From positions 383 to 64,382 of the forward strand of contig CAZELI010000011.1 of NCBI GenBank assembly GCA_964512985.1: 64,000 nt of DNA, read 5' to 3'. Position 1 is the stretch's first letter. The number at the start of each line of letters is the position of its first letter. Positions 1,632-57,198 of this stretch are shown here, one piece after another. The DNA is from an uncultured Gammaproteobacteria bacterium (GTDB taxonomy: Bacteria; Cyanobacteriota; Vampirovibrionia; LMEP-6097). The notes under the pieces were generated by a model that saw only the letters and a program-made list of their open reading frames with translations, had not been told where the DNA came from and ran no database searches. The translations under genes were made by a program, and so were the position numbers.

Positions 1632-2592
1632 ATTCCTCTGGACTAAAGCCCATATACTTAGCAACTGGCCAGTAAACGCAATAGAAACTTCCTAATAGAG
1701 CAAAGATCACTAGTAGAGTGAAGACCATGTTCAATGCAGTAAAGATACTGATCAGAAGTGCTTGCTCTCCGATGTTGAAGCGTAAGATTGGAATAGCGCG
1801 GTAGACGGAGAGACCGAAATTCAGGATAGATTTAATAATCGTCATCCTGAGGGAGGGCGAAGCCCGACCGTCAGGATCCACTGCTAATGGCTGGATTGCG
1901 ACGTCGTCCGTCTTCACTTCGTTTCGACGGACTCCTCGCAATGACGATACTGAGTCTTCATGCGACGCCTGACTTCCTCTTTGCACAGCGGGCTCTAGCT
2001 TCATATCCTGATTCACGTAATAATCAATGAGCAATACTGTAAACATCGCAATCATTGCCAGAGGCCAGATTAGCCAAGTCGCTACTGGAAAGGATTTGAT
2101 AAACATCATCTGAAAATCAACGGGTAATTTAAAACTACCATTAACTCCAAGAAAAAATTCTATAACAGAACTCACACGTGAAAAATTCAAAAAGAAAAAC
2201 TCTTCATGACTAGTAAAAAATCCCCAGGCTAATGAGAAGAAATAAATAAAATCCTTAACCCTGTCACTGACCCGATCTAACCAAGCACCAAGCTTAGAGA
2301 ACTGTTGGCGATAGCGCGCCAGTTGCCCGTCCATGCAATCTACAGCAAATGAAAGCTGCACCAAAGCCGCTCCTATAATGAGGTGTAAATGATCACCACA
2401 AGCAAAGCACCATGCCGCAATCATCCCAATTAAAAAAGAATTAACGGTAATAAGGTTTGGACTAATCCAGGATATATCACAAATCGGCTCAAGCAAACGA
2501 TTAGCCAGAGGACCAGAGAAAATACTTGCCCACCAGCCGTCTTTTTGTTTAATAGCAGAACGAAGTTTTAATTTTTGAGTAGGAGATAGCAC
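1630..2592 (-). CDS. CDP-alcohol phosphatidyltransferase family protein with an in-frame repeat-element insertion
   Basis: Carries the motif DCMDGQLARYRQQFSKLGAWLDRVSDRVKD (D-x2-DG-x2-AR...G-x3-D-x3-D) and is polytopic. About aa 216-251 (SSLRGVRRNEVKTDDVAIQPLAVDPDGRASPSLRMT) are encoded by the repeat element at 1840-1946. Confidence 0.8.
   Translation of the reverse strand: MLSPTQKLKLRSAIKQKDGWWASIFSGPLANRLLEPICDISWISPNLITVNSFLIGMIAAWCFACGDHLHLIIGAALVQLSFAVDCMDGQLARYRQQFSKLGAWLDRVSDRVKDFIYFFSLAWGFFTSHEEFFFLNFSRVSSVIEFFLGVNGSFKLPVDFQMMFIKSFPVATWLIWPLAMIAMFTVLLIDYYVNQDMKLEPAVQRGSQASHEDSVSSLRGVRRNEVKTDDVAIQPLAVDPDGRASPSLRMTIIKSILNFGLSVYRAIPILRFNIGEQALLISIFTALNMVFTLLVIFALLGSFYCVYWPVAKYMGFSPEE
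1840..1946. mobile_element. REPIN/MITE-like doublet located inside a CDS
   Basis: Module CGTCATCCTGAGGGAGGGCGAAGCCCGACCGTCAGGATCCAC (1840-1881) plus inverted module CTGGATTGCGACGTC...TCCTCGCAATGACG (1891-1946). Same family as 4094-4204, 26095-26203, 54399-54485 and 57086-57198. Confidence 0.85.
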
Positions 2593-2631
2593 TACTTATA
2601 TAATATAAGGTAAAGAGCTAAAAAAATCTTA

Positions 2632-3048
2632 TTACTTCCTCTCTAAAGCTAATTCTTTTAATCTCTGTTGAGTTAAAACTTCATCAACGACATCAGAAAG
2701 CATCACCGCTAGCTCATGAGCCGCTAGATATCGCTCAATCATTAGCTTAAAACCACCGCTCTTAATTCTGTCTATCAGGGGTTTAACATCATTTATTTCC
2801 TGGATAATATCGTTCTTAGTACGAATATCATCATTATTAGAACTTATTTTAGTTTTTCCACTAGTTTTTAAAAATTCCTTTAAAGCATCAGACGAAAGCG
2901 CTTCTCGAAGCATTTTCTCTATATGATGCGCATTCACTTCTCTTGCTTTACCAGATAAATAAGTAGGTATCTCATTGGCACGTCTCATTGCTTTGAGCGC
3001 AGCAATTAAGGCTTGCGAAAATTCATCAATTTCTGTCGGTTTATCCAT
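2632..3048 (-). CDS. Hypothetical protein; start probably at M62 of the 199-aa track ORF
   Basis: The long ORF would overlap the thrB start by 68 nt. The internal start MDKPTEIDEF avoids the overlap. No motif recognised. Confidence 0.4.
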   Translation of the reverse strand: MDKPTEIDEFSQALIAALKAMRRANEIPTYLSGKAREVNAHHIEKMLREALSSDALKEFLKTSGKTKISSNNDDIRTKNDIIQEINDVKPLIDRIKSGGFKLMIERYLAAHELAVMLSDVVDEVLTQQRLKELALERK

Positions 3049-3163
3049 AGCAACTAAATAGTTTCTACCACAGGAAACATAAGATTTAACAGGAGCAATT
3101 AGCGGTCCGCAGAAAATGTTATTAATAAGCTGAGCAATTAGTGGATTATGGTATAAAATACTG

Positions 3164-4081
3164 ATGGTGAGCCCATTTATAGTAAAAGTCCCAGCAAGTA
3201 CTTCGAATCTAGGTCCCGGCTTTGATGTCATTGGGCTGGCGTTAAATCTCTACAATAGCTATAGTTTTGAGCTTAGCAATCAAGGAAACTCTGAGCTTAG
3301 CTATAGCTCTAATGTAAGTTCTAGTGAAATCCCCTATAGCAAAGATAATCTAGTTTATCGGGCTTTTGATTATGTTTTTCGTAAAGAGTCTAAAGAAACC
3401 CCTTCCGTCAAAATTCATTTTCAAGCTGATATACCTACCACTGGTGGCTTTGGGTCAAGCAGCACCGCAATTCTTGCTGGCTTAATGGCAGCTAACAAAA
3501 TACTTGGCGAACCTTACGACACTAATAAGATTCTTAAAATAGGAACTCAACTCGACGGACATCCAGATAATATAACCCCTGCCATGCTTGGCGGTTTAAT
3601 AGTCTGTGTCTACGCTGATGCGCAGCATCATTACGTTAAATTAGCTTGGGACCAAAACTTATTTTTTGTGGCAGTGACACCAGACTTTAAGGTGCCCACA
3701 GCAGATGCAAGAGCGGTATTGCCTTCGCATGTAGAGTTTCAAGATGCGGTATTTAATCTCGGTTACAGTAGTTTATTAATCGCAGCACTTGCAACAAAAA
3801 ACACCGAAGTCCTCAAGCAATGCTTCAAAGACAGACTACATCAGCATTACAGAGCGAAGCTCGTTCCTGGAATGCAATGCGTGCTTGATACTGGAGTAGA
3901 AGCAGGAGCTATTGGCACTATGCTCTCTGGAGCTGGATCAACTTTAATTGCAGTAGTAGATAATGATAAAACTGCTGAGACGGTAGCGCTTGCAATGCAA
4001 TCTGCTTGGATGCAAAGCGGTGTCAAATGTGACTATAGGTTCTTGAGAGCCGTGGATACAGGCGCAAGTATTGTTTCGTAG
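3164..4081 (+). CDS. thrB: Homoserine kinase
   Basis: N-terminal VKVPASTSNLGPGFD and the GHMP kinase motif PTTGGFGSSSTAILAG. Length 305 aa. Confidence 0.9.
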   Translation: MVSPFIVKVPASTSNLGPGFDVIGLALNLYNSYSFELSNQGNSELSYSSNVSSSEIPYSKDNLVYRAFDYVFRKESKETPSVKIHFQADIPTTGGFGSSSTAILAGLMAANKILGEPYDTNKILKIGTQLDGHPDNITPAMLGGLIVCVYADAQHHYVKLAWDQNLFFVAVTPDFKVPTADARAVLPSHVEFQDAVFNLGYSSLLIAALATKNTEVLKQCFKDRLHQHYRAKLVPGMQCVLDTGVEAGAIGTMLSGAGSTLIAVVDNDKTAETVALAMQSAWMQSGVKCDYRFLRAVDTGASIVS

Positions 4082-4093
4082 ATTTAAGGATTT

Positions 4094-4204
4094 CGTCATC
4101 CTGAGGGAGGGCGAAGCCCGACCGTAAGGATCCACTTTTATTAATAGATTATTCGTAGCAGTGGATCCTTACGTCGCAACCTACGGTTGCTCCTCAGGAT
4201 GACG
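4094..4204. mobile_element. REPIN/MITE-like palindromic doublet
   Basis: Terminal inverted repeats CGTCATCCTGAGG / CCTCAGGATGACG. Inner GGATCCAC...GTGGATCC with a 25-nt spacer. Sits 13 nt after the thrB stop. It is the reverse-orientation counterpart of 57086-57198. Confidence 0.9.
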
Positions 4205-4226
4205 GAAAGCAATATATAATATATAG

Positions 4227-5639
4227 ATGCGCCGAATTACTAAGTTAATTTTAGTTTTATTAATATTGTTTTCAAACAGTCCAGTTCAGGCACTATCTGT
4301 TCAACATGAATTAGAAGAAGAAACCAAATATCCAGAAGTTCCACCAGCAAAACTTTATGATAAGGTCTGGAAAATTATTAAAAGTGACTATGTTGACCAA
4401 CATTATAACCATCAAGATTGGGAGATTTGGAGACACCGTTACGACGACTATTTGGAGACTAGAGAAGATTCTTATAAAGCAATAGAGACTATGGTCGCTT
4501 CGCTGGGTGATCGTTATACTAGATTCCTTGACCGTAAAGAGTTTGAAGAAGAGAAAGAATCGATAGAAGCAGAATTGACTGGAGTCGGCATACAGATAGG
4601 GTTAGACAAATCTGGGCAAGTGATTGTTATTGCTCCAATAGAAGGTACTCCAGGAGCTAATGCTGATCTGAGACCTAACGATTTAATTATAGAAATAGAT
4701 GGCAAGAACACCTCGGGCATTTCCATCGAGCAAGCAGCGAAGATGATTCGTGGACCAGTAGGCAGCTCGGTGACACTCACTGTTAAACGCGAAAAAGAAA
4801 AGATGAAGAAGACTATTACACGAGCTGTGATTCCTATTAAGTCTATTCCTGACGGACAAGCTAAGATGATTTTTGATGATATTGGTTATATTCGCCTTAG
4901 TACATTCATCTCTAAAGATACAGTGGAAGAATTATTAGATGCTATGGATAAGCTTGATAAAGATGCTAAGGGCTATATTATCGACTTGCGTAATAATCCA
5001 GGTGGTCTATTAAACAACGCAATGGTAATCTCTGACATGTTTCTGAACGAAGGTATTATAGTTAGCACTGTTAACAAGAATGGGTATGTTAGTTCATTTA
5101 ACTCTCGTAAAATCAGTTCTTCTGATAAACCTTTAGCATTGTTGGTGAATAGCAACAGCGCAAGCGCTAGTGAGATTTTCGCAGGGGCTCTGAGAGACAA
5201 TGGTAGAGCAGATATCATTGGAACTACGACATTTGGTAAGGGGTTAGTACAAGCAATTAATAAGCTTGGTGATGGTAGTGGCGTGAACGTAACTATCGCT
5301 AAATATCTCACACCTAATAAAACAGACATAAATAAGAAAGGTATTAAGCCTGATTATGAAGTGAAACTAGAGAAGCTTGATTATGACCTCAGTAGAGGAC
5401 CTTGGTTCTTTGATCCCAATGTTAAGTTTGGTATAAGACAACCAGAAGACGCTCAAGACAAGCAACTTATGAAAGCTGTCGAAGTACTTAAACCTAAGAT
5501 CGCTGATGCTAAGCCACTTGCGAAAGAAATAATTGATAAAGTAACTGAACTCGATAAGAAGTACGCTGAAAAAGAAGCCGAAGAGAAAAAGAAAGAAGAG
5601 AAAGACAAACAAAAAGATAAAGTTAAGGCTGAGAAGTAA
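4227..5639 (+). CDS. ctpA: C-terminal processing peptidase (S41 family) with PDZ domain and lysine-rich tail
   Basis: Signal peptide; PDZ-like GVGIQIGLDKSGQVIVIAPIEGTPGANADLRPNDLIIEIDG; catalytic region NSASASEIFAGAL ... TFGKG. TATAAT at 4215-4220 lies 6 nt before the ATG. Confidence 0.88.
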   Translation: MRRITKLILVLLILFSNSPVQALSVQHELEEETKYPEVPPAKLYDKVWKIIKSDYVDQHYNHQDWEIWRHRYDDYLETREDSYKAIETMVASLGDRYTRFLDRKEFEEEKESIEAELTGVGIQIGLDKSGQVIVIAPIEGTPGANADLRPNDLIIEIDGKNTSGISIEQAAKMIRGPVGSSVTLTVKREKEKMKKTITRAVIPIKSIPDGQAKMIFDDIGYIRLSTFISKDTVEELLDAMDKLDKDAKGYIIDLRNNPGGLLNNAMVISDMFLNEGIIVSTVNKNGYVSSFNSRKISSSDKPLALLVNSNSASASEIFAGALRDNGRADIIGTTTFGKGLVQAINKLGDGSGVNVTIAKYLTPNKTDINKKGIKPDYEVKLEKLDYDLSRGPWFFDPNVKFGIRQPEDAQDKQLMKAVEVLKPKIADAKPLAKEIIDKVTELDKKYAEKEAEEKKKEEKDKQKDKVKAEK

Positions 5640-5664
5640 ATCTATATTGCTATAATATTCTCTC

Positions 5665-6672
5665 GTGCCTGTCAAAGAACTAACATCAATCAAAATTGGA
5701 GACCTAACTCTAAATGGCTGTGTCTACATACCTCCCATGGCAGGGGTTACGGATATAGTTTATAGAAAGCTTTGTAGAGAGTTTGATCCAGATGTATTAC
5801 TCTCGACAGAGATGCTTAGCTCTAAATCTCTTACTTACGCTCACAAGAATTCTAAAACTCATAGACATACAGCGCGCATGGATATACCTGAAGCTGATCC
5901 ATTAACTGGTATCCAATTATTTGGGCATGAACCAGAGGTAATGGCAGAAGCCGCCCAGATCGCAGAAGAATCTGGAGCTAAATTTATCGATATAAATATG
6001 GGCTGTCCTGTATCTAAGATAGTGAAAGGGCAAGATGGAGCAGCACTGATGCGTGAACCTGATCTAGCTTGTGACATCGTGAGGGCAGTAATCGCAGCCA
6101 CTAAATTACCTGTCACCGTTAAAACTCGCTTAGGCTGGTGCGCAGAGAGCATGCATACTCCTGAACTCGCTAAGAGGTTTGAAGGATTAGGCGTACAAGC
6201 CATGACTATTCATGGCAGAACCAGATCTCAATTATATAGTGGTCAAGCTAACTGGGACCAAATTGCGCAAGTCGTCTCAGCAGTGAAGATTCCAATATTT
6301 GCTAATGGTGATATCAAAGATCTAAATGATGCTAAGAAAATATTAGAAGTTACTGGCGCTGTAGGCATGGCGATAGCGCGCGCGACAATGGGCAAGCCTT
6401 GGTTCTCCAAGCAAGTGAATCATTATATTCGCACTAGTGAGATTCTTCCAGAACCCAATATCCAAGAGCGATTGGCATTAGCCTTAAAACATTGTCAAAT
6501 GTTAGTAGAGTATAAGGGACTAGAAATAGGTATCAGAGAAAGTCGTAGACATATAGTGAGCTATACTGCTGGAATGAAAGGCGCCGCCAAAATCCGCCCT
6601 CTTATACTTGCTGTTAATTCAGTAGCAGAAGCCGAGAAATTAATTGATGAGCTTTTGGTTTTGAATTCTTAA
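5665..6672 (+). CDS. dusB: tRNA-dihydrouridine synthase
   Basis: Motifs PPMAGVTD, IDINMGCPVSKIVK, TIHGRTR. GTG start. TATAAT at 5651-5656 lies 8 nt upstream. Confidence 0.88.
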   Translation: MPVKELTSIKIGDLTLNGCVYIPPMAGVTDIVYRKLCREFDPDVLLSTEMLSSKSLTYAHKNSKTHRHTARMDIPEADPLTGIQLFGHEPEVMAEAAQIAEESGAKFIDINMGCPVSKIVKGQDGAALMREPDLACDIVRAVIAATKLPVTVKTRLGWCAESMHTPELAKRFEGLGVQAMTIHGRTRSQLYSGQANWDQIAQVVSAVKIPIFANGDIKDLNDAKKILEVTGAVGMAIARATMGKPWFSKQVNHYIRTSEILPEPNIQERLALALKHCQMLVEYKGLEIGIRESRRHIVSYTAGMKGAAKIRPLILAVNSVAEAEKLIDELLVLNS

Positions 6673-6694
6673 CCTAGAGGCAATGGTCAACCGA

Positions 6695-6825
6695 TACCCG
6701 TAATCCGTCATTGCAACGTAGACACTAGTGCAGACCGACACCCGTTAGCCGTCATCGCGAGGAGTCCGTCGTAACGCAGTGAAGACGGACTCCTCGCAAT
6801 GACGGACTACGGGTGCTGGTTTACT
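6695..6825. mobile_element. Composite or degenerate cluster of the same repeat family (TTGCGAGG subtype)
   Basis: Long hairpin CGTCATCGCGAGGAGTCCGTC-loop-GACGGACTCCTCGCAATGACG (6750-6814). It is nested in the outer inverted repeat ACCCGTAATCCGTCATTGC (about 6697-6715) / GCAATGACGGACTACGGGT (about 6805-6823). Lies between the convergent dusB and methyltransferase genes. Confidence 0.75.
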
Positions 6826-8053
6826 ACAAATCACCCCAATAATCCATATCACGTGCTTTCTTCAAAGCATCCTGGTAAGCCGGTTCATCACCAATTAATT
6901 TATAATACCTAGCCCAAAGCTCATAAGTGAAAGCATTATAGGGAGAGAGTTCTGTAAGCTCTTCCAAAATCAACTTCAGCTCATTAAGATTAGAATCCGA
7001 GAATTCATCTGCTTGCTTCTCTAATTCTAAATATCTCAAGATCAAATTATGGGCAATGAAAAGCTCATCATAGATAGGTCTTAAGCATTCTAGTAAGGCT
7101 TGCTGCTTAGTAACCAACAATCTAGAAATGTTCTTGGTATCATTTTGCACCATGCCAATATAACCCAGCCTTCGCAAAGAATCTAATAAGAAACTATTAT
7201 CAACTTCATGAGCAATAGAATTCCCCACTACTGCAAAGCGAAAGTTCCTCTCACGATTAGGAATTATATCCACCGACAATAAGAAACCATTCTCATCTAG
7301 TAAGCTCATTAAATTATCACAAGCCTTAAGTGCATCATAAGAATAAAAAATCTCTTTCTGGTAATCTGAATAGTATTCTAGTAAGTAAGATTTATAATGC
7401 TTCTCTGTATCGCCCTGCTCATCCCAGTTATAGGCTTGCCATTTCTCTTCATGCTCTAACCTTGCTTGCAAGAAATCATTCTCCAAGATATCTGGTTCTT
7501 GATCTTCTCTCTTACTAGTAGATATATATAATTCTTCTAAAGTATCTGACTTAGACCATCGTAAAATAGTCATAGGTAAAGCATCTAATACATAATGCAA
7601 GAATATTGCCCTAATATTACTCAATGGAATAGAGTCACTGACTATATTGAAGACTAGTAATTTATAATCTTGTCCTTCTTGAAACTCGTCCAAGATTCCT
7701 CTGGATCGTATCTCTTCTAAATTATGCTTAGAATAATCCGTAATTAATAAAGTAAGCTTCTCTAAGATCCCAAGCTCTCTTGCAGCAAGGAGAAAGTGCC
7801 GAGAGAATCTTCCTGAACCAGCGCCGCATTCTAGTACATTAACCTTAGTAGCACTAGGATATGCTTCTAGATTAGCTTGCACTAACTTAGCCAGCGCCAT
7901 TGCACTTTGGTAATTAGTACCAATCTTATGCGGAATGATTTTAGGAGCCTTATTACTCCATGCCATAATACCTTTAGCCTGGTAATATTGGTCGCTTATT
8001 TGCCATATAATCGATTCATTATAAGGCTTGAAATTTTCATCTAAATATGGCAT
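6824..8053 (-). CDS. Class I SAM-dependent methyltransferase-like protein with a C-terminal helical (TPR-like) region
   Basis: Motif I LECGAGSGRFS. The start ATG directly abuts the stop of the upstream ORF (TAAATG). Confidence 0.55.
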   Translation of the reverse strand: MPYLDENFKPYNESIIWQISDQYYQAKGIMAWSNKAPKIIPHKIGTNYQSAMALAKLVQANLEAYPSATKVNVLECGAGSGRFSRHFLLAARELGILEKLTLLITDYSKHNLEEIRSRGILDEFQEGQDYKLLVFNIVSDSIPLSNIRAIFLHYVLDALPMTILRWSKSDTLEELYISTSKREDQEPDILENDFLQARLEHEEKWQAYNWDEQGDTEKHYKSYLLEYYSDYQKEIFYSYDALKACDNLMSLLDENGFLLSVDIIPNRERNFRFAVVGNSIAHEVDNSFLLDSLRRLGYIGMVQNDTKNISRLLVTKQQALLECLRPIYDELFIAHNLILRYLELEKQADEFSDSNLNELKLILEELTELSPYNAFTYELWARYYKLIGDEPAYQDALKKARDMDYWGDL

Positions 8054-9109
8054 TTATAAATAACTTGCAATATCAATATCAGTATTAGCAATGATCTCTT
8101 GAGTAACAGGATTTAGAAGCATTAATTGATATTTATCACTTTTCTTTACAGAGCCTAGACTAAAGGCTAGCTTAATTACATTAGAATTTTTTACTGAAAC
8201 AGAATCTAGTCCAGCATTGGACAATAGAGGATTATTAAATATTGGTAGCACATGCCTATCAGAACTCAGTATAAAATCCCCCATGAAAAGCTCACGGGGA
8301 CTATTATTGGCAAGTTCTATATCCACCAGCATAAACTCACCATAGTCTCTAGATTTAAATTTAGAAATTTGTTTCACATGAATATCAATGCCCATAAGCT
8401 TAGCGCTAATAGGTTCAAATTCTTGCGACATTATCGGCAGTTCTTCAAGAAACGCAAAATCAGAATCAAGCTTAAGATTAATAGGATCAAAGCCACTACT
8501 AACTAGCTCCTTACCCTTAGTCTTAACAACACCAGCCAAGCCCAACCCCAATCCTAGACCAGCTCCTACCATGGTAGTAATACCACTAGTTGCCATAGCA
8601 GCACCAATACCACCATATTGTATAGAATCCAGAGCTCCAACTAAAGTGCTAGCAGTAATAGTACTACTATGCTTAATTAATTTTCTTGCTAGAGTTTTGA
8701 TGTTACTTGGTTGATCATCATCTTGCATACTTTCCTTAGAACTAAAATCTGCACTAACTTTTACCGTAGAACCATCTGGAAACATGAGTTCGTTGACATG
8801 AATTTTTAAGCTAGCACCGATACCTAAGGACTTGGGTTTATTAAGCTGAGTAATTTCTCCTAATAAACGAGTTCTTTCTGGAATCTTAAAAATCTGACAA
8901 GCATTCTTGGAAAGAAACGCACTAAAGTAATCACCCGTAAGACTAAGCTCAGTATCCACTATAGTCTCAGGTACTACTTGAATATTTAATCCTTTGGTTT
9001 CAAAAGCCTGAATCTGCGCTTGGTAAACAGGGGTAATACTCATTACTTTTAGCGGCGAAACTAATATAAAAGAATTTATTAATAAAAAGATATGTACAAA
9101 TTTTCTCAC
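8054..9109 (-). CDS. Secreted hypothetical protein with a glycine-zipper segment
   Basis: N-terminal signal-like FVHIFLLINSFILVSPLKVMS. Central GIGAAMATSGITTMVGAGLGLGLGLAGV. GTG start. Confidence 0.5.
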   Translation of the reverse strand: MRKFVHIFLLINSFILVSPLKVMSITPVYQAQIQAFETKGLNIQVVPETIVDTELSLTGDYFSAFLSKNACQIFKIPERTRLLGEITQLNKPKSLGIGASLKIHVNELMFPDGSTVKVSADFSSKESMQDDDQPSNIKTLARKLIKHSSTITASTLVGALDSIQYGGIGAAMATSGITTMVGAGLGLGLGLAGVVKTKGKELVSSGFDPINLKLDSDFAFLEELPIMSQEFEPISAKLMGIDIHVKQISKFKSRDYGEFMLVDIELANNSPRELFMGDFILSSDRHVLPIFNNPLLSNAGLDSVSVKNSNVIKLAFSLGSVKKSDKYQLMLLNPVTQEIIANTDIDIASYL

Positions 9110-9291: not shown

Positions 9292-9673
9292 TCTCTGGGT
9301 GTTGATCAAGGGATTTGTACTTTTAGCCAGGAATCTGCGATTCCGGGTCGAGGGTTAGCAAGGAAGGTCTAAACGACCTTCCTTGCACTCTTAAATGAAA
9401 CCAGAGATTCAACCACAAAATAAATTCTGACAAATGTCTAATGTCCAGCTACGACCTAAAATCTTCATGACAACATTCTCTAAGGAGAAAATAACCGGCG
9501 ACATTACTTTCAGGAGCAGGCATTCGATCGCCACTAAGCCTAGAGGTCGTTAGCATAAATACATCCAGTAATATCACACAAGGCTCTGGTAGTTTCTTCT
9601 CCCTATCTAGTAATTTCCATATACACCATTTAGTTGATTTAACACTGATTAAGGAATTGGGAATTGAGTGGTT

Positions 9674-12196
9674 ATGAGAAGAATTATTAACCTTAGTATT
9701 GCTTTATTATTAGCTACGACGATAACGCAAACTTATGTCTCAGCCATTACCTTAGTACCTAATAAAACGAACTTTCGGTTCAATGGTTCAGCTAACTCTC
9801 TAAGCTTCAAGGTGAGCCTAAGTGACGATATCCCTTCCTTAACTGGCTCGGGGTTAATTAGCGCAAAGCTCAAACTCAATTCATCACTCTTCACTACCAA
9901 TCTTACTAACAATACTATCTCTATACCTTATACTGACGGTGTTATAGGTGAAAGCCCAGAGATCACTATTAGTCTCAAGAATCCAACTATCACTAAATCA
10001 TCCTCATCACCTTTTAGCGTTAAATTCTCTGGATCCCAACGCAAGAAATTGAAGTTAGCTAATTACTCTGACACTTTTAATATAGATGCTAGTCCTATAC
10101 AGGTCTCTGGTCGTGTAACGATCCCTGAAGATAGTGCTTTAAGCTTCAAAGCTAGAACAACTAAATTATTGAAAGCCCGCACTATTGCACCGTTTAATAC
10201 TGATAATCCAGATGGTGTCTTAGTGCAATTAATGCCTATTGATCCAGCTACTGGTGAGGCCAGTGGGGCAGCCATAGCAGAAGCTATAACAGATAGTGAC
10301 GGTAACTATAATCTTGAAATGCCTGTAGAAGCAGGATTTGGTACAGATTATGCTTTAGTAGTGGAAGGTGATGATGGTGAGAATATGCATGCACCATTAT
10401 TTGGTGATTCTGTAAACATTACACCTGCCACTGAAACTTTATTTCAATTAACTCAAGATGCTGTTCAAGATCCTACTAGTATTGGTTTAGGTGCTGACGA
10501 AGAAATATCATTTGAGAATTTTACTGATACGGAAGCTTTAGGTCTTAATAACCAGCTAGAAGAATTAACTCCTATCTACGAATCAACACTTTCTGCATCA
10601 ATACAGAGTTTAAAAGATACTTATGCAAGCTTCCTTAATAATATGCTTGGAGCCTCCGCCGACGATGATGCTAGTGGTATCTCTACAAATATTGGAGAAG
10701 TAGCTAAAGATATGGCGGGAGACTACCATGTAAGTTTCTTTGATACCTCTATTAGTTCGGAGCAAAGACTTATGATTTCAGTGGAATTAGCTGGAGCTAG
10801 AATGTCTAAACCAGATGAAGTCGGTGCACTTTCTGTGTATCCGTTCCCTTCATTCTCTAGTCAAGCATCTAGCCAAGTTGCTCGTAATGATAGAGGACCA
10901 GACCAGGGACAAGGACCAGACCAGGGACAAGGACCAGACCAGGGACAAGGACCAGACCAGGGACAAGGACCAGATCAAGGACAAGGACCAGACCAGGGAC
11001 AAGGACCAAGTGAAGGTGAACCGTCAGCATCAAGCGCCCGTGTCATCAAGCCTCTTGAGAATACTAGTTGCTATGACGTAGAAGCATACTCTGAAGCCGC
11101 ACACGAAGTAAGGGGTACTCAAGATGGTAGTTTCTACATGACAGTTGATGCTAATCGTATTATTAACTTTGCAGAACCCGCTTCAGAAGAGACTTATAGC
11201 ACTCCTGAAGGACAGCAAGGATCTTTTAGAAGACAACCTAGCGTTATGAATATGATACCTGTTGGTGATGGTATGTTTTTATCAAGTATGAGCTCAACTT
11301 CTAGTAACTTTATGGATGGTAGCTTACAATCAACTGAGTATGAAGCGGGCTTTGCCAGTATCATCAAGAAATCATCGCTAACAGCTTCAGATCTTACTGG
11401 TAATTATGGTATGGTTGGTCTTGGCTATAAAATAGGTGCAGAAGATTACGGTACGATTGCATTCATTGGAGATTTAAGCTTTAGTTCAAGTCAGGTGAAT
11501 TTTAATCTGAATATGAAGTCTATCAATGTATCAGCAGATAGTTGCGAAGCATCGTCTTTTACATTAACGGAAGAAAGTACCGAGGAGCTTGGTTCGGCCA
11601 GTCTTGAGTTTGACAACGGTAGGCTTAATGTTGAGTTAGAGGGAGAAGAGTCTAATTCAGAAACTTTATTTACTGGTTTTGCTAGACCTGACGCTAAAGT
11701 ATTGTCGTTAATATATGCTAGTGATAGTGGCGCACAGGGTTCACGTCAAGACCATGAAGGTCGTTCGAGAAACGTTATTTCAACTGCAGATAGGCAATTA
11801 ATGATTGGCGTCAAGAAGCCAACTACTTTACTTAATCTATCAGGTAAATCTTACAGAATCTTATCAATGAACTTTGGCTTTAACGAACAGGGTGGTAGGA
11901 CTATTAAACAAGGTGAACTTGGTACTTTAAGTTTTAGTGACGGCACACTCAGCGTTAGTGGTTTCTCTAGAGATGTATTCACTAAAGATTCAGCTGATAG
12001 TGAGAGTATAACTGCTTCCAATTCTGTAACGGTAGGCACTGCTATAAGTTACACACTTGATGCTCAGGGTAAGATTAATTTCACTCTTGGTAACGATCAG
12101 CTCACTGGTTATGTAGCTGATGATGCAAGCTTAATAGTCCTATCTTCAGATGAAGATTCTTCACTTGGTATCTATTTTGCAATATTAAATCAATAA
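9674..12196 (+). CDS. Large secreted protein with a GPDQGQ hexapeptide repeat tract
   Basis: Signal peptide MRRIINLSIALLLATTITQTYVSA. A CarboxypepD_reg-like stretch (VSGRVTIPED...DSDGNYNLEMP). The track start at 9668 is GTG; ATG at 9674 preceded by AAGGAA is more likely. Confidence 0.6.
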   Translation: MRRIINLSIALLLATTITQTYVSAITLVPNKTNFRFNGSANSLSFKVSLSDDIPSLTGSGLISAKLKLNSSLFTTNLTNNTISIPYTDGVIGESPEITISLKNPTITKSSSSPFSVKFSGSQRKKLKLANYSDTFNIDASPIQVSGRVTIPEDSALSFKARTTKLLKARTIAPFNTDNPDGVLVQLMPIDPATGEASGAAIAEAITDSDGNYNLEMPVEAGFGTDYALVVEGDDGENMHAPLFGDSVNITPATETLFQLTQDAVQDPTSIGLGADEEISFENFTDTEALGLNNQLEELTPIYESTLSASIQSLKDTYASFLNNMLGASADDDASGISTNIGEVAKDMAGDYHVSFFDTSISSEQRLMISVELAGARMSKPDEVGALSVYPFPSFSSQASSQVARNDRGPDQGQGPDQGQGPDQGQGPDQGQGPDQGQGPDQGQGPSEGEPSASSARVIKPLENTSCYDVEAYSEAAHEVRGTQDGSFYMTVDANRIINFAEPASEETYSTPEGQQGSFRRQPSVMNMIPVGDGMFLSSMSSTSSNFMDGSLQSTEYEAGFASIIKKSSLTASDLTGNYGMVGLGYKIGAEDYGTIAFIGDLSFSSSQVNFNLNMKSINVSADSCEASSFTLTEESTEELGSASLEFDNGRLNVELEGEESNSETLFTGFARPDAKVLSLIYASDSGAQGSRQDHEGRSRNVISTADRQLMIGVKKPTTLLNLSGKSYRILSMNFGFNEQGGRTIKQGELGTLSFSDGTLSVSGFSRDVFTKDSADSESITASNSVTVGTAISYTLDAQGKINFTLGNDQLTGYVADDASLIVLSSDEDSSLGIYFAILNQ
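10895..11020 (+). repeat. 18-bp coding tandem repeat (GGACCAGACCAGGGACAA), six copies plus one degenerate
   Basis: Five copies are identical, one has 2 substitutions (10967-10984), and a degenerate seventh sits at 11003-11020. Encodes (GPDQGQ)6-GPSEGE. Confidence 0.9.
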
Positions 12197-19114: not shown

Positions 19115-19117
19115 TTG

Positions 19118-19187
19118 TTGATTATAATCAATATACCATAGTTTGTTGATTATAATCAATATTATAAGGTTTATTGACTATAATCGA
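19118..19187. promoter_or_regulatory. Three 28-bp-spaced copies of a 14-bp palindrome containing TATAAT
   Basis: TTGATTATAATCAA at 19118-19131 and 19146-19159 (both perfect), and TTGACTATAATCGA at 19174-19187. Confidence 0.7.
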
Positions 19188-19252
19188 CAAAATCCACAAA
19201 GGCTAAGTCTACCTTAGTACACTATATGCTATTACCATTTAATCCAATTGAC

Positions 19253-27507: not shown

Positions 27508-27508
27508 T

Positions 27509-44904: not shown

Positions 44905-45183
44905 ATGAGTCAAAAGAAGTTAAAGTCAGTCAAAACAATCAAAGGCATTACAGTCAGATTTGACAATGAAATCTATGAAAAATTACAGCTAAAAGCCAAA
45001 AGTGAGAACCGTAGTCTTTCTAATTTTATTGAAACTTTCGTGATGGAAAATCTAGAAGACAAAAATCTAATAGATGAATTTGAAATGCAATCTATTCTTG
45101 CTAATAAGGAGCTACTAAAGGGTTTAGAGCAAGGTCATAAAGATGCCAAAGCTGGCAGAGGTAGATTTGTATCAGATTTTTGA
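44905..45183 (+). CDS. Ribbon-helix-helix (CopG-like) antitoxin
   Basis: ITVRFDNEIYEKLQLKAKSENRSLSNFIETFV. TAAAAT lies 8 nt before the ATG. Confidence 0.65.
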   Translation: MSQKKLKSVKTIKGITVRFDNEIYEKLQLKAKSENRSLSNFIETFVMENLEDKNLIDEFEMQSILANKELLKGLEQGHKDAKAGRGRFVSDF

Positions 45184-45442
45184 AACTAATTATTTTATCA
45201 AAAAAGTAGAAAAGGTTTTTAACAAGAATCTGCAAAATAGTCTATTTAAAAAACTCAGGTCTTATATCTATCCACAATTAGCAAATAATCCATATCTGGG
45301 CAACAATATCAAGAAACTTCGCAATTATGAACCCGAAACATGGAGATATAGAATCGGAGATTATAGATTATTTTTCAGTATTGACGAAGAAGCTAAGATT
45401 GTATATATCTTTGACTTCGAGCATCGTAAAGATGCGTATTGA
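45167..45442 (+). CDS. RelE/ParE-family toxin
   Basis: WRYRIGDYRLFFSIDEEAKIVYIFDFEHRKDAY. The track start is ATG at 45143. TTG at 45167 gives the more typical N-terminus (M)YQIFETNYFIKK. Confidence 0.7.
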   Translation: MYQIFETNYFIKKVEKVFNKNLQNSLFKKLRSYIYPQLANNPYLGNNIKKLRNYEPETWRYRIGDYRLFFSIDEEAKIVYIFDFEHRKDAY

Positions 45443-47111: not shown

Positions 47112-47114
47112 AAA

Positions 47115-51573: not shown

Positions 51574-52920
51574 TTAACCAGTCCACTCTCGAGTAAAAGT
51601 ACAAGCTTTAGCAAGATAAATTGGCAATTTACAAACTTTACGCTCACTATTATAACTAAAATTATTAGCACTAAAAATTATTTTATAGGGAGAGTCATAT
51701 TTCTTAGCAAACACATCAATGCTTCTTGCTTTAGTATTAAAACCAGACTTTACCTCTATTGGAATTTGCTTGCCTGTTATCGTTCTAATGAATTCAACTT
51801 CAGACTTATTTTCTTCCCATGCATATAATTGATCATTTCGACCTAACTCTTGAGAGAATTCTTGAGCTATAAAATTCTCTGCAATATAACCCTTATAAGT
51901 TCCATAGTTATAATCCATCATAGTGATGGGATCAAGATTACCCAAAGCACCAAGTATCCCCACATCATAGAGAAAGAGCTTGAAACGATTCTCTTCTGTG
52001 TAAGCCTTAATAGGTTGCTCACCATGATTAGCAATTAAAACTTTGATTATCAAATTACTAGCTCTAAGCCAATCAATAGCACCACTGAGTTGATCATAGC
52101 CTTTAACTTTAGGAACTACATTCTTGAAAGTAAATTTAGGAGCATTTCCGTCTAGTCTCCGAGCCAACTGTTCTGGAATATTAGAGAACACTCTTTCTAT
52201 ATGCATAGCATTGACTGAGCCACAGTGTTTAGCCATATCTGCCATATAAACATTAATTATCTCAGATTGTTTTTCTCTGATAGTTGTTAAAGCATCAATC
52301 TGATTAGCTTTGAGTTGATTATAAGTTGAGATGACCTCAGGTAAACCTCCAATGACAAGGTATTGCTTCCACAAATCAAAAAGTTCTTTATGCATAAATT
52401 CAGGAATACGCTCTCCCCACTGCCAGGCATTAATAAATTCATATTTCTCATTTTCATCTAGACCAAGTAAAAATTCTGTAAATGTCATAGGAAACATATT
52501 GATCAAATCAACCTTACCAACAGGGAAAGAAGCTTCTCCATATTTAACTCCTAACAACGAACCCGCTGAAGCAAGTGCAAGTTCAGGCATATCCTCACAA
52601 AAATATTTCAAACTTGTGATTGCTTTAGGGCAAGTTTGAATTTCATCAAAAATCAATAAATCCGTTTTGATATTAACTTTGGTTTTTAGCTTACGCTCAA
52701 GTTCTTGTATAATTCTTAAAGGATCTAAATCATAGTCAAAAATTTCGCACAGACTGATGTTTTTCTCGAAATTCACATAGTGATAATTTTGAAAGAATTC
52801 TTCCCCACAATACTTAAGCGCATAAGTTTTACCTACTTGCCTCGCTCCCAAAACTATTAACGGCTTACGCTTAGGCTTAAGGCCCCAAGTTTTGATTTGT
52901 TCATAAATCAACCTACGCAT
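51574..52920 (-). CDS. AAA-ATPase with C-terminal PD-(D/E)xK-like motif (AAA_14/DUF4143-like), copy 3
   Basis: Walker A GARQVGKTY, Walker B LIFDEIQ, C-terminal SEVEFIRTITGKQIPIEVKSGF. TATAAT (52929-52934) lies 8 nt before the ATG. Confidence 0.7.
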   Translation of the reverse strand: MRRLIYEQIKTWGLKPKRKPLIVLGARQVGKTYALKYCGEEFFQNYHYVNFEKNISLCEIFDYDLDPLRIIQELERKLKTKVNIKTDLLIFDEIQTCPKAITSLKYFCEDMPELALASAGSLLGVKYGEASFPVGKVDLINMFPMTFTEFLLGLDENEKYEFINAWQWGERIPEFMHKELFDLWKQYLVIGGLPEVISTYNQLKANQIDALTTIREKQSEIINVYMADMAKHCGSVNAMHIERVFSNIPEQLARRLDGNAPKFTFKNVVPKVKGYDQLSGAIDWLRASNLIIKVLIANHGEQPIKAYTEENRFKLFLYDVGILGALGNLDPITMMDYNYGTYKGYIAENFIAQEFSQELGRNDQLYAWEENKSEVEFIRTITGKQIPIEVKSGFNTKARSIDVFAKKYDSPYKIIFSANNFSYNSERKVCKLPIYLAKACTFTREWTG

Positions 52921-53005: not shown

Positions 53006-54322
53006 CTATCTTTGCTCTATAGGCACATATGACTGTTCGTTTGCACCAGTATAGATTTGACGTGGACGGAAGATCTTATTAATACCGCTATCACGTTGTT
53101 CTTTCCAATGCGCTAACCAGCCAGGAATTCTGCCTAAAGCAAACATTACCGTGAACATATCCACAGGAATACCGATGGCTTTATAAATGATACCTGAGTA
53201 GAAATCCACATTCGGATAAAGCTTACGAGAAACGAAGTAATCATCTTTCAGAGCTTCTTCTTCAAGACCTCTTGCTATATCTAATAAAGGATCATTCACA
53301 CCAAGCTTACTAAGCACAGTGTCACAAGCTTTACGAAGGATTTTTGCGCGCGGATCAAAGTTTTTATATACTCTGTGTCCAAAGCCCATTAATCTAATAC
53401 TAGACTTCTTGTCTTTTACTTTACTCAAGTAAGTTTTATAATCATCACCACTAGCTCTAATATTCTCAAGCATCTCCAATACCGCTTGGTTAGCACCACC
53501 GTGTAATGGACCCCAAAGCGCAGAGATCCCAGCAGAGATCGCAGCATAAATACTTGCACCAGAACTTTGTACTGTACGAACAGTAGATGTAGAACAGTTT
53601 TGCTCGTGATCAGCATGAAGAATGAGTAATTGATTTACTACTTTCACTAAATCAGGATCAATCTCATAAGGTTCTGAAGGTACCGCAAACATCATATTAA
53701 GGAAGTTTGCACAGTAGGTAAGTGAATTCTCAGGATAGATTAAAGGTTGTCCAATAGACTTCTTGTAAGAGAACGCTGCAATAGTTCTAAGCTTAGAAAG
53801 AATACGAATGATATCTAAGTTAACCTGCTCATCAGAGACAATATCCTGCGACTCAGGATAGTAACTAGAAAGTGAAGAAGTCATAGAACTCAGAATAGAC
53901 ATCGGATGTGCTTTACTAGGGAATCCAGAAAAGAAATGCGTCATATCTTCATGTAATAAAGAATGTCTAGTAAGTCCAGTAGAGAATTCTGATAATTCTT
54001 CTTTGGTAGGAAGCTTGCCATAAATCAATAGATAAGCGCTTTCTACGAAAGTAGATTTCTCAGCAAGATCTTCGATGTTATAACCACGATAACGTAATAT
54101 ACCTTGCTCACCATCAATAAAACAGACCGAACTCTGACAGGAACCAGTGTTCACGAACCCATGATCAAGAGTAATTAGTCCAGTATCACTTCTTAGTCGC
54201 GATATATCTAGGGCCCTTTCTCCTTCTGAGCCCTCCACTATCGGAAATTCAAAAGTCTTACCATCAACATTAAGAGTCGCGGTTTTCGAAGCTATTTCTG
54301 TCTGAGCTGAATTCATAACCAC
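53006..54322 (-). CDS. gltA: Citrate synthase
   Basis: GFGHRVYKNFDPRA, LHADHEQN, GPLHGGAN. Confidence 0.9.
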   Translation of the reverse strand: MVMNSAQTEIASKTATLNVDGKTFEFPIVEGSEGERALDISRLRSDTGLITLDHGFVNTGSCQSSVCFIDGEQGILRYRGYNIEDLAEKSTFVESAYLLIYGKLPTKEELSEFSTGLTRHSLLHEDMTHFFSGFPSKAHPMSILSSMTSSLSSYYPESQDIVSDEQVNLDIIRILSKLRTIAAFSYKKSIGQPLIYPENSLTYCANFLNMMFAVPSEPYEIDPDLVKVVNQLLILHADHEQNCSTSTVRTVQSSGASIYAAISAGISALWGPLHGGANQAVLEMLENIRASGDDYKTYLSKVKDKKSSIRLMGFGHRVYKNFDPRAKILRKACDTVLSKLGVNDPLLDIARGLEEEALKDDYFVSRKLYPNVDFYSGIIYKAIGIPVDMFTVMFALGRIPGWLAHWKEQRDSGINKIFRPRQIYTGANEQSYVPIEQR

Positions 54323-54398
54323 AATCTTCCCATAATTTATATTTTTTCACTCTCTAGTAATTAGGCAATACTGTTATCTTGCGAAGAATTCGGGTCTT

Positions 54399-54485
54399 CG
54401 TCATCACGAGGAGCACCGCAGGTGCGACGTAGTGATCCAGTCTGGATTGCGACGTCGCTCACTTTGTGAGCTCCTCGCAATGACG
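54399..54485. mobile_element. REPIN/MITE-like doublet with a 1-nt spacer
   Basis: CGTCATCACGAGGAGCACCGCAGGTGCGACGTAGTGATCCAG, then T, then CTGGATTGCGACGTCGCTCACTTTGTGAGCTCCTCGCAATGACG. Confidence 0.9.
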
Positions 54486-54531
54486 GCATTTTTTTTACCT
54501 TACTCGTCCCAATACAGTATAATTTTTCGAT

Positions 54532-56280
54532 ATGAAATTAAGTAGCATGTTTAGGAAAAAATGTATTGTTAAGTTAAATGAAGAACCGATAGATAGTGTT
54601 GGTCATTTAAGCTTAAACAGAATTCTTACGACCAGGGATTTAACGGCACTGGGAGTTGCAGCGATTATTGGTGCTGGAGTATTTAGTACTATAGGACGCG
54701 CTTGCTTCAACGGTGGTCCCGCAGTATCTCTACTATTCGTGTTTACTGCTATCACCTGTACTTTCTGTGCCCTTTGTTACGCAGAGTTCGCTTCTAGAGT
54801 GCCAGTAGCTGGCAGTGCTTACACATATTCATATGTGGCATTTGGTGAGATCGTTGCGTGGATCATTGGTTGGAACCTGATCATGGAATATGCCATCGGT
54901 AATATCACCGTAGCCATAGCCTGGTCTAGTAATCTTGTGAGCTTCCTTAGAGGCTTTGGTATTCATATACCTGACTACTTAGCTAATAGTTATATGGCAG
55001 CAGCTAAAGGACACAATAAATTCATGGAACTTAGTGCCCAAGCCAGTTCTATCCCTGCGCCTAATCCACCGATAGAAATTCCTAGTCATCTAAACTACTT
55101 ACATGAAGTATGGCTTAATGCGCCACATATCTTTGGCATTCCTCTAATACTTAACCTACCAGCCTTCTTGAGCGTAGTAGCTATTACTGTTCTAGTTTAT
55201 GTCGGTGTGAAGGAGTCTCGTAACACTACTCTATTTATGGTTGCATTTAAAGTAGTAGTAGTTCTATTAGTAATTCTTATCGGTGCTTTCTATGTCAATC
55301 CTGAGAACTGGGTACCCTTTGCTCCTAATGGAGTCAGAGGTGTGATGCAGGGTGTCTCAGCAGTGTTCTTTGCGTATGTGGGATTTGATGCTGTCTCTAC
55401 TACAGCTGAAGAATGTAAAAATCCTCAGAAAGATTTACCTCAAGGTATGATTAATTCTCTACTTATTTGTACAGCTTTATATATTGCAATCTCACTTGTG
55501 TTAACAGGAATGGTTAAATATACAGAACTAAACGTGGGTGATTTTATTGTAGTAGCGTTTAACTCAGTAGGCTTAAACTGGCTCGGTGGCATACTTGCAC
55601 TCAGTGCAGTCGTAGCAACTACTAGCGTAATGTTAGTATTCCAATTAGCACAGCCGCGTATTTGGATGGCAATGAGCCGCGATGGTTTACTACCTAAAAA
55701 ATTCTCTTATATACATCCTAAGTTTCGTACTCCGAGCTTTGCGACTATAATTATGGGCTTTATGGTAGCAGTACCTGCTCTAATCCTAGATGCTGAACTC
55801 GCCACAGATATGAATAGTATCGGGACCTTGTTTGCGTTTGCGGCAGTTTGTGCTGGTATCTTGATGCTTCCTAAAGAAGGTACTCATGGTAAATTTATGG
55901 TGCCTTTTATTGATGGACGTTTTATTATTCCTGCGCTAGTACTTATTAGTGGAATGTTGCTCTATGTTTATAATGCTCAAGCTTGCTGCGAATTCTTTAG
56001 CTTAGATCATGCTGTCTTAAGTCCAATGCAGGTCTTCGTTAATAAGATCCCGCATTTTAGTTTCGTTGCTTTAGTAGTTGGCATGGCAATCTTAAGCTTC
56101 CTGAAGAAACTTTCTGTTATTCCTGTATTAGGTTTACTTTCTTGTTTCTATTTAATGACAGAACTTGGAATCCTTAATTGGCAGAGATTTGGCGTATGGA
56201 TGTTAATAGGATTTACTATCTATTTTATATATGGATATAGTCACAGCCAGATGGGCAAGGAAGAAAAAGCTAAGCCTTAA
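54532..56280 (+). CDS. APC-superfamily amino acid permease (cationic amino acid transporter-like)
   Basis: 582 aa with 12-14 TM helices. GAGVFSTIG and FFAYVGFDAVSTTAEE. TATAAT (54518-54523) lies 8 nt before the ATG. Confidence 0.8.
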   Translation: MKLSSMFRKKCIVKLNEEPIDSVGHLSLNRILTTRDLTALGVAAIIGAGVFSTIGRACFNGGPAVSLLFVFTAITCTFCALCYAEFASRVPVAGSAYTYSYVAFGEIVAWIIGWNLIMEYAIGNITVAIAWSSNLVSFLRGFGIHIPDYLANSYMAAAKGHNKFMELSAQASSIPAPNPPIEIPSHLNYLHEVWLNAPHIFGIPLILNLPAFLSVVAITVLVYVGVKESRNTTLFMVAFKVVVVLLVILIGAFYVNPENWVPFAPNGVRGVMQGVSAVFFAYVGFDAVSTTAEECKNPQKDLPQGMINSLLICTALYIAISLVLTGMVKYTELNVGDFIVVAFNSVGLNWLGGILALSAVVATTSVMLVFQLAQPRIWMAMSRDGLLPKKFSYIHPKFRTPSFATIIMGFMVAVPALILDAELATDMNSIGTLFAFAAVCAGILMLPKEGTHGKFMVPFIDGRFIIPALVLISGMLLYVYNAQACCEFFSLDHAVLSPMQVFVNKIPHFSFVALVVGMAILSFLKKLSVIPVLGLLSCFYLMTELGILNWQRFGVWMLIGFTIYFIYGYSHSQMGKEEKAKP

Positions 56281-57043
56281 TCCAATCTATAATATCTTTT
56301 CCAATAGGCGCGACTAAATCTGACCAAATCCAGTCGTGATCAGCACCTGAGTAAACTTTCATGGTTTTACTCTTGGAAGGTATTTCTTTAAAATATAGAT
56401 CTTGAGTTGCATTATCCACAACCTTGTCACCTTCCATTTGGATACAAAGCACTGGAGTTTGTAATTTAAGAATATTCTTCTGAGTTATGCCGCGCATTTT
56501 CACTATCTCAAACAATAATGTTTGCGTTACGGTACCAACTCTCAGCGGATCAGTCATCGCTGGAGTAAGTTTAGCTTTCTCTGAGACGGGCATCTCCACA
56601 TATACATCTCGATCAAAAATTAATTTATCAATAATTATTTTTCGTACTGTGTTAATCATAAAAGACAAATCAAAAGTAGACGAAGCACCCTTAAAGCCAG
56701 GCACTGACAGTATTAGCTTGTCTCCTTGAGCAATCTCTGGAAGATTCACTGCAATTAAAGCTCCGAGACTATGTCCTAGAATAGTGATTCTTGAATTAGG
56801 ATTTTTATCCTTAAGAAGCTCGTACTTTCTCTGCACAAAATCTATCCACTCTTGATAGGAATCTACATGACCCTTAGTATAAGGACTATGGTTATCAGGT
56901 GCTAAATTATGATTCTTACCAAAGCCCGGTAAGTCATAAGCCACAAACTCTATACCATTACGCCTGCATTCTTCTGCTAAGCTAGCAAACCAACCGCTAT
57001 GACCACCAAGTCCGTGAATTGCAAGTACAATGTCTTGAACCAT
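56270..57043 (-). CDS. Alpha/beta hydrolase (lysophospholipase/monoglyceride lipase-like)
   Basis: HGLGGHSGWF and nucleophile elbow GHSLG. Confidence 0.7.
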   Translation of the reverse strand: MVQDIVLAIHGLGGHSGWFASLAEECRRNGIEFVAYDLPGFGKNHNLAPDNHSPYTKGHVDSYQEWIDFVQRKYELLKDKNPNSRITILGHSLGALIAVNLPEIAQGDKLILSVPGFKGASSTFDLSFMINTVRKIIIDKLIFDRDVYVEMPVSEKAKLTPAMTDPLRVGTVTQTLLFEIVKMRGITQKNILKLQTPVLCIQMEGDKVVDNATQDLYFKEIPSKSKTMKVYSGADHDWIWSDLVAPIGKDIIDWIKA

Positions 57044-57085
57044 TTTTATATTATAAGCTCAAAATGCTTATAGGTCTTATTTCCT

Positions 57086-57198
57086 CGTCATCCTGAGGAG
57101 CAACCGTAGGTTGCGACGTAAGGATCCACTATTTCGAGATAAATTTCTAATTAAGAGTGGATCCTTACGGTCGGGCTTCGCCCTCCCTCAGGATGACG
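57086..57198. mobile_element. REPIN/MITE-like palindromic doublet
   Basis: CGTCATCCTGAGGAGCAACCGTAGGTTGCGACGTAAGGATCCAC, a 27-nt spacer, then GTGGATCCTTACGGTCGGGCTTCGCCCTCCCTCAGGATGACG. Has the same two modules as 4094-4204 in opposite order. Confidence 0.9.

Follow-up and report, generated by a model that had tools for sequence, protein, structure and literature searches.

The CGTC superfamily of repetitive extragenic palindromic (REP) sequences, defined with the families CGTC-1 to CGTC-4 and including dRS3 of Neisseria and RPE-4 and RPE-6 of Rickettsia, is characterized by an unpaired CGTC (or TGTC/CCTC) tag, A-T at positions 1-2 of the stem and a CCA tail (Di Nocera, De Gregorio and Rocco, 2013, PMC3733652). 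Members of the four published families are perfect hairpins of 27-30 nucleotides (nt), whose stems measure 8-9 bp and whose loops measure 4-5 nt. The repeats of the superfamily form dimers mostly in the HH arrangement with the tags outside, often as heterodimers, the TT and HT arrangements being rare, and sit between unidirectional or convergent open reading frames (ORFs) near the 3' ends, in-frame intragenic copies being frequent (PMC3733652). Unlike GTAG REPs, CGTC REPs come without an associated transposase, and a REP-associated tyrosine transposase (RAYT) bracketed by CGTC repeats was found in no species; the original study left open whether the repeats are extinct relics or are moved by unrelated enzymes, and bulged variants may have slipped past its search (PMC3733652). 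Here, inverted doublets of hairpin modules scattered over 64,000 nt of contig CAZELI010000011.1 from an uncultured bacterium (assembly GCA_964512985.1; this whole stretch is called the window) are described, which are HH heterodimers of a CGTC-tagged REP, a bulged two-tier variant outside the four published families.

The window holds 11 full modules, arranged as five inverted doublets (d1, 1840-1946; d2, 4094-4204; d3, 26095-26203; d4, 54399-54485; d5, 57086-57198) and one solo module, together with one composite and one short fragment. Scattered palindromic doublets had been claimed from an inspection of the letters and ORFs without database searches (the sequence-only reading), and they are real: the coordinates were re-read, and the repeat CGTCATNNNGAGG, counted exactly and with one mismatch against a background of 100 shuffles of the window, occurs in 13 exact copies, which include every position named in that reading, and in 16 matches with at most one mismatch vs 1.3 expected by chance, a number to which 0 of the 100 shuffles got. 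The 3' motif GACGTNNNNATCCA is present in 8 copies vs 1.6 expected, and a repeat search sorts the window copies into direct and inverted families.

With the CGTC superfamily the window repeats have in common the tag, found at the start of each of the 11 full modules and of both composite arms, the AT foot of the stem and the CCA tail (CGTC-AT...AT-CCA in 11 of 11 modules), the HH heterodimers with the CGTC tags outside (five of five doublets), the location near the 3' ends of ORFs, the in-frame intragenic copies and the fact that no associated transposase was found. They differ from the families CGTC-1 to CGTC-4 by a module size of 41-56 nt, the two-tier architecture with an internal loop (GAG(GAG)/C(GAC)GU), a bulged base and a variable apical hairpin, and the peptides of the published families, VIPAKAGI, VIAGLDPAIH and VIPWLDHGI, belong to sequences other than the window modules. 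The host is an uncultured bacterium outside the species covered in PMC3733652, and a further difference to the described superfamily is that the unit of change is shown here as the single module. Alongside the two-tier type, the fetched loci also contain classical short hairpins that are CGTC-1- and CGTC-3-like.

A comparison with the palindromic elements of Rickettsia, among which only RPE-4 and RPE-6 belong to the CGTC elements, reveals the likeness of in-frame hairpin repeats in coding genes that are tolerated as loop peptides (d1 and the solo module); the window copies, however, are mostly intergenic, and RPE-1, at about 100-150 bp, exceeds them in length and has no sequence relationship to them.

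From 5' to 3' a module consists of an unpaired CGTC, AT followed by a 5-nt outer stem, GAGG(A)G, the apical hairpin, CGAC(C)GT, the complement of the stem followed by AT, and an unpaired CCA(C/G). The outer stem occurs in the window in the variants CCTGA, CACGA and TGCGA, the internal loop is purine-rich and conserved (GAGGAG/CGACGT), and the apical hairpin is GC-rich with a 3-nt loop and otherwise free in sequence and length. Single window modules fold as two-tier hairpins with z = -2.2 to -4.6, and whole doublets reach folds of -50 to -84 kcal/mol (z = -4.6 to -13.5); in doublets whose modules have a common outer stem, one module pairs with the other and leaves the apical hairpins to project as side arms. 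Of the two strands, the one that carries CGTC gives the more stable fold in 11 of 11 window modules and, among modules of other genomes, in 93 of 105 when folded as RNA and in 81 of 105 when folded as DNA. Mismatches in the outer stem among near-miss hits (about 5 G.T vs 4 A.C by our own count) are uninformative on whether RNA or DNA is the relevant form.

Integron attC sites are imperfect palindromes with a conserved stem foot, extrahelical bases, a variable terminal structure and one strand that folds better than the other. The CGTC modules have the same palindrome and strand-asymmetry traits, which is an analogy of working only and no membership, as they are without similarity to the R and L boxes and are dispersed rather than arrayed, with no integrase or cassette context in the examined loci. 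With respect to known RNA motifs, a hammerhead or other small ribozyme was considered and rejected: CUGAGGAG resembles the CUGANGA box, but its CUGA part covaries as a stem, the GAAA box is missing and Rfam gives nothing. A K-turn was likewise rejected, as many members have Watson-Crick pairs in place of the tandem G.A/A.G pairs and the other strand carries four extra bases. A tRNA-like minihelix, suggested by the CCA at the end of an approximately 12-bp helix, is speculation only. In an Rfam search of the window tRNA alone reached the gathering threshold, and a literature search by the DNA words of the modules gave primer matches only and encountered the encoded peptides in no relevant paper.

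The two-tier type extends far beyond the window. A degenerate module pattern (17 bases plus a variable gap), scanned over a collection of species-representative genomes, matched at least 119 stretches, and the listed matches bear the labels Alpha-, Beta- and Gammaproteobacteria, Desulfovibrionaceae, Thermodesulfobacteriota, Myxococcota, Pseudobdellovibrionaceae, Bacteroidota, Fibrobacter, Treponema, Gastranaerophilales, Babeliaceae, Absconditabacterales, Actinomycetes, Acidimicrobiia, Oleiharenicola and Clostridia, which places the module type in genomes and metagenome-assembled genomes (MAGs) labelled as more than 10 phyla among the matches listed. By our own arithmetic, the chance expectation for the 17-base gapped pattern over the collection is of the order of 2,000; the 3-bp core of the stem is perfectly complementary in 122 of the 153 listed matches vs 1 in 64 by chance, and therefore most of the listed matches are real. 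In predicted viral contigs the pattern has 80 matches, 21 of them with a complementary stem, showing that modules are present there without enrichment, and seven plasmid records match at a site which is unannotated in each.

A gap-free alignment of 44 distinct 35-nt modules, some invariant columns of which are forced by the search pattern, demonstrates a 12-pair helix in which both sides change in six pairs, with 43 compensatory cells vs 8.5 in shuffles (0 of 500 match the observed value) and 4-9 in slid controls. The tandem G.A/A.G of some members is G-C/C-G in others, and the A.G opposition and the bulged base are found in all. A covariance model, R1, built from foreign modules alone without the window sequences, recovers 11 of 11 window modules with E = 3e-12 to 0.06, one long module (1891-1946) being matched partially at E = 0.87, and a scan of the window with this model gives only the 11 modules and no extra copy. 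Cumulatively, these results show a structurally constrained module family, present in genomes and MAGs labelled as many phyla.

How the modules change over short evolutionary distances can be read from syntenic contigs retrieved via the flanking proteins, whose identity to those of the window is given here as a percentage (L122, 77%; L124, 83%; L272/L273, 93%). The syntenic MAGs GCA_964551135.1 and GCA_964410425.1 have both been deposited under the name 'uncultured Gammaproteobacteria bacterium', and the nearest named homologues of two window proteins are from Candidatus Caenarcaniphilales MAGs. A comparison of insertion sites, which the sequence-only reading had proposed, uncovers empty, solo and doublet states at four window sites. 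At d5 the window carries a doublet composed of one module of type B (apical hairpin CAACCGTAGGTTG) and one of type A (CGTCATCCTGAGGGAGGGCGAAGCCCGACCGTCAGGATCCAC), the 93% relative has type B alone with a similar spacer and an 84% relative is empty; window and L273 differ by a clean 42-nt indel, which is the type A module 57157-57198 from tag to tail with a one-base ambiguity of the alignment. At d1, the type A module is present in identical form and alone in L122, where the 56-nt module (1891-1946) is missing, and the single module of L124 is a different one and oppositely oriented. Both L122 and L124 are empty at the d2 site, and the d4 site is without a module in L272, whose permease is 93% identical, and holds a degenerate half-module in an 84% relative. 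In two cases the extra module stands tail-to-tail beside a resident module, and a target-site duplication is not visible at the d2 or d5 junctions.

The unit gained or lost between close relatives is thus a single module bounded by tag and tail. As this variable unit is the single module and not the doublet, the REPIN model does not fit the window lineage. On the other hand, d2 and d5 have both module types in common together with similar spacers, which suggests that whole doublets may also be copied, as well as single modules. The spacers within doublets measure 1-27 nt and are mostly unrelated, as had been claimed, with the exception of the d2 and d5 spacers, which are roughly 60-65% alike as judged by eye.

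A different picture is seen in an unrelated AT-rich (33-36% GC) bacterial lineage, the JACCDG/JACCDT contigs (L205-L260), where a 39-nt CGTC module with the CCTGA stem builds HH homodimers, roughly 200-300 nt long, around a conserved AT-rich spacer (for example L238 8263-8538, 10358-10588 and 12771-13077). The inverted repeat runs a few bases past the CGTC tag, some copies carry an extra insert of about 60 nt directly after the first CCA tail, and the neighbouring genes include GroEL, PrmC and MutL. The 69 identical copies of the module in the sample are the signature of a recent burst in this lineage.

Starting from the family membership, the structural constraint, the strand asymmetry and the polymorphism of sites by a module-sized indel, the best explanation, which we hold to be probable, is that the window repeats are non-autonomous CGTC hairpin modules that are recognized as a folded single strand, are gained and lost one module at a time and accumulate as dimers with the tags outside. 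The modules would spread as non-autonomous elements by a single-strand mechanism, in which a trans-acting enzyme not encoded nearby would recognize the folded strand, with an action that would resemble that of HUH or tyrosine enzymes on REP, IS200/IS605 or attC hairpins, and dimers would grow by insertion next to an existing module. At the RNA level, the very stable fold of a doublet behind a stop codon probably shields the 3' end of the upstream mRNA as a side effect, and would not act as an intrinsic terminator.

Several points weigh against this explanation. No mobilizing enzyme was found, and therefore transposition is inferred from the presence/absence patterns alone. The direction of each gain or loss is deduced from three-taxon comparisons without a tree, and deletion or recombination between repeats could yield the same presence/absence patterns. 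The strand asymmetry arises in part because the search pattern demanded a purine-rich loop. All breadth counts refer to the matches listed and are lower bounds, and the number of phyla is soft, since labels of MAGs can be wrong and bins contaminated.

The search for an enzyme covered the window and about 2 Mb of fetched module-bearing loci, in which neither a RAYT nor another transposase was found. A RAYT/TIRYT profile built from 15 sequences in Additional file 5 of PMC3733652 was run against the window, about 0.9 Mb of genome loci and 0.5 Mb of metagenome loci without a hit, the best value in the genome loci being E = 0.04, and a Pfam scan of about 60 window ORFs, about 15 of which are without any Pfam match, gives no transposase, in agreement with the earlier statement that the window contains no such gene. 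When ORFs lying up to 1.5 kb from a module were clustered, for about 115 genome loci and 68 metagenome loci, no transposase family recurred, and the recurring neighbours are generic only (GGDEF, ABC, sigma-54 activators, SDR, acyl-CoA dehydrogenase, tRNA synthetase and histidine kinase). An insertion sequence ending in these modules was not found in the loci examined.

A bolder version, which we put forward tentatively and regard as rather doubtful, is that the two-tier CGTC module is a distinct pan-bacterial element under structural constraint, copied hairpin by hairpin, cut at the CGTC tag and the CCA tail, and inserted tail-to-tail by a broadly conserved, possibly housekeeping enzyme that is not encoded beside the repeats. 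If true, this location and conservation of the enzyme would be the reason why no dedicated transposase has been found since 2013.

The sequence-only reading had assigned the doublets to REP/REPIN elements mobilized by RAYTs, or to a miniature inverted-repeat transposable element (MITE). REP-type hairpins, inverted dimers, singletons and dynamic behaviour between relatives are borne out, while the RAYT, REPIN and MITE mechanisms are unsupported, given the CGTC tag, the single-module unit and the lack of a visible target-site duplication. With the GTAG REPs, bacterial interspersed mosaic elements and REPINs that accompany RAYTs in E. coli, Pseudomonas and Stenotrophomonas, the window repeats have in common the build of tetranucleotide tag plus imperfect hairpin, inverted dimers joined by short linkers, an extragenic position after genes and a presumed single-strand hairpin substrate. 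Mobilization by a cognate RAYT, a Y1 HUH transposase, encoded elsewhere in the genome would be compatible with this architecture of tag plus hairpin, inverted dimers, singletons and high turnover, and in the JACCDG/JACCDT contigs the dimer with its conserved spacer indeed acts as one unit. We nevertheless judge it unlikely, as the tag is CGTC and not GTAG in every copy, one module is the variable unit, the spacers of the window lineage are not conserved and differ between doublets, so that the doublet is not the unit of replication there, and PMC3733652 reports no RAYT flanked by CGTC repeats in any species. The hidden Markov model of RAYT/TIRYT sequences is without a match in the window, genome and metagenome loci, and the cognate RAYT bracketed by modules, for which a search had been suggested, was not found in the window or the about 2 Mb of fetched loci.

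The stable folds can also be read as primarily a functional RNA, for example a stabilizer of the 3' untranslated region, an attenuator or a protein-binding hairpin, which selection would maintain and which would spread through recombination or gene conversion instead of transposition. In favour of this reading, three of the doublets are found 5-12 nt past stop codons with very stable folds, conservation extends to the unpaired nucleotides, covariation of the stems is seen across phyla and the sense strand is the better folder. In each doublet, however, any transcript meets one module in sense and the other in antisense, d4 is located between divergent genes upstream of a promoter-like site, and modules occur in both orientations and several frames in the same protein loop. 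Rfam gives only generic microRNA-hairpin matches to the modules even at E <= 10, T-runs are lacking and close relatives with the same genes have empty sites, which leaves selection for an RNA function a low probability as the origin of the repeats. A MITE, that is, a deletion derivative of an insertion sequence with terminal inverted repeats (CGTCAT...ATGACG) recognized by a DDE transposase, would account for the perfect inverted repeats at the ends of the doublets and for the JACCDG/JACCDT dimers, which look MITE-like by their length of roughly 200-300 nt, conserved spacer and inverted repeat extending past the tag, but is highly improbable, as modules insert or delete singly, the absence of a visible target-site duplication at the d5 and d2 junctions argues against a classical MITE, and no recurrent transposase stands beside the modules in the about 115 genome and 68 metagenome loci, nor any Pfam transposase in the window.

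The ORFs flanking the repeats in the window are real genes. According to the sequence-only reading most copies would follow stop codons or separate convergent genes, which applies to four of the seven loci (d2, d3, d5 and the composite), but not to d4 between divergent genes nor to d1 and the solo module, which are intragenic. A role as terminator is not borne out: the doublets are without a T-run, and a terminator scan of the two regions that contain d1, d2 and the composite (1-8000) and d4 and d5 (53500-58000) scored no doublet as an intrinsic terminator.

Doublet d1 is an in-frame insertion in the gene for a CDP-alcohol phosphatidyltransferase, ORF 1630-2592(-), where it encodes ...SLRGVRRNEVKTDDVAIQPLAVDPDGRASPSLRMT..., and is composed of a type A module on the plus strand (1840-1881) and the 56-nt module on the minus strand (1891-1946) with the TGCGA stem and a long apical hairpin. 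This phosphatidyltransferase and its homologues repeatedly host CGTC modules in a loop between transmembrane segments: at least 11 of the 23 homologue loops scanned contain module peptides (RHPEE..RRKDP, SLRG..RRGNP, ..LAMT and ..LRMT), which stem from both module orientations and several reading frames and are seen at identities as low as about 55%. The long apical hairpin, TCCGTC-GAAACGAAGTGAA-GACGGA, is seen in the 56-nt module (1896-1925) and in the composite (6765-6790), and its words GAAACGAAG, GTGAA and GAAGAC recur in a hairpin at L272 ~5940-5975, the empty d4 site, as well as in the extra insert of the JACCDG/JACCDT elements (L238 ~8310-8370); it may be a second small repeat that nests in or beside CGTC modules.

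Doublet d2, between co-directional genes, begins 12 nt past the stop codon of the GHMP-kinase gene with a type A module on the plus strand (4094-4135), followed by a type B module on the minus strand (4161-4204). The 12 nt to its left at 4082-4093 (ATTTAAGGATTT) are absent from the empty sites of the relatives; joined to the neighbouring stop codon they give TAGATTTAA, a 9-mer which is also seen at a similar distance on the left side of d1's type A module (compare 1828-1839). In this single case, sequence flanking d1 may have come along with the copy now at d2.

The composite, without an assigned strand, extends over 6686-6824 between convergent genes and folds as DNA with -39 kcal/mol (z = -6.7). 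Its core at 6750-6804 is a near-perfect palindrome, in which one apical hairpin is common to two module 5' halves, and which is flanked by the 16-nt extension repeat ACCGAYACCCGTWAKC at 6690-6705 and 6734-6749 and inverted at 6805-6821. A CGTCATTGC fragment is present at 6706-6714, and the left arm is duplicated. The solo module on the minus strand (20546-20587; E = 2e-11 with the covariance model) makes up the last codons of the TP_methylase ORF 20528-21319(-) and encodes its C-terminal residues (RHHEERRRRDVVIQ). The 12-nt fragment that had been listed with the copies, CGTCATCCTAAG, is present on the plus strand at 26055-26066, but is too short to be separated from a chance match; if not such a match, it may have been left over from the 5' end of a module.

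Doublet d3, between the stop codon of a CysN-like gene (26209) and the start of the IGPS gene, both co-directional, combines a type C module on the plus strand (26095-26138) with a type B module on the minus strand (26160-26203), which stops 5 nt from the stop codon of ORF 26209-27567(-). In d4, just upstream of a promoter-like site between the divergent genes for citrate synthase and an amino-acid permease, a plus-strand module with the CACGA stem (54399-54440; E = 2e-11) is separated by 1 nt from a minus-strand module with the TGCGA stem (54442-54485; E = 3e-12). Doublet d5, again between co-directional genes, consists of the type B module on the plus strand (57086-57129) and the type A module on the minus strand (57157-57198), which ends 5 nt from the stop codon of ORF 57204-58169(-). 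At L272 ~8570-8665, the NCBI record of the 93% relative has an N run with duplicated flanks exactly at the module beside the d5 site, which the ENA version L273 reads through; the N run looks like an assembly or scaffolding artefact.

Three paralogous ATPases with AAA_14 and DUF4143 domains are encoded in the 64 kb of the window, at 17834-19159(-), 34223-35635(-) and 51574-52920(-), and more copies are present at non-orthologous places in relatives (L122 1-1030 and L272 11208-12509). A palindromic repeat, TTGTTGATTATAATCAATAT..., at 19114-19191 spans the start of the first paralogue; no link of these paralogues to the hairpin repeats was found. An 18-nt tandem repeat of about seven copies (AGGACCAGACCAGGGACA) at 10876-11037 lies in ORF 9668-12196(+), the 842-aa product of which has no Pfam match, and encodes GPDQGQ hexapeptides by our own reading of the frame. 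Components of toxin-antitoxin systems are a HipB-like helix-turn-helix protein at 1230-1547(-), beside which HipA is located in L001, a YafQ-like toxin at 31686-31973(+) and a ParE-like toxin at 45143-45442(+). The relative L272 has a HipBA pair beside citrate synthase, and none is there in the window.

With respect to annotation, these repeats yield spurious or extended ORFs and put the peptides RH(P/C)EE..., ...SLRG... and ...L(R/A)MT into real proteins. Within the window, they amount to ordinary selfish or neutral repeats and not to a new system. CGTC-tagged REPs are widespread, and the window and its syntenic relatives provide a concrete handle on their mode of spread, as they combine a bulged two-tier variant with strongly conserved unpaired bases across many phylum labels, empty, solo and doublet states at the same sites between flanking proteins that are 77-93% identical, and a clean 42-nt indel that delimits the mobile unit from tag to tail.

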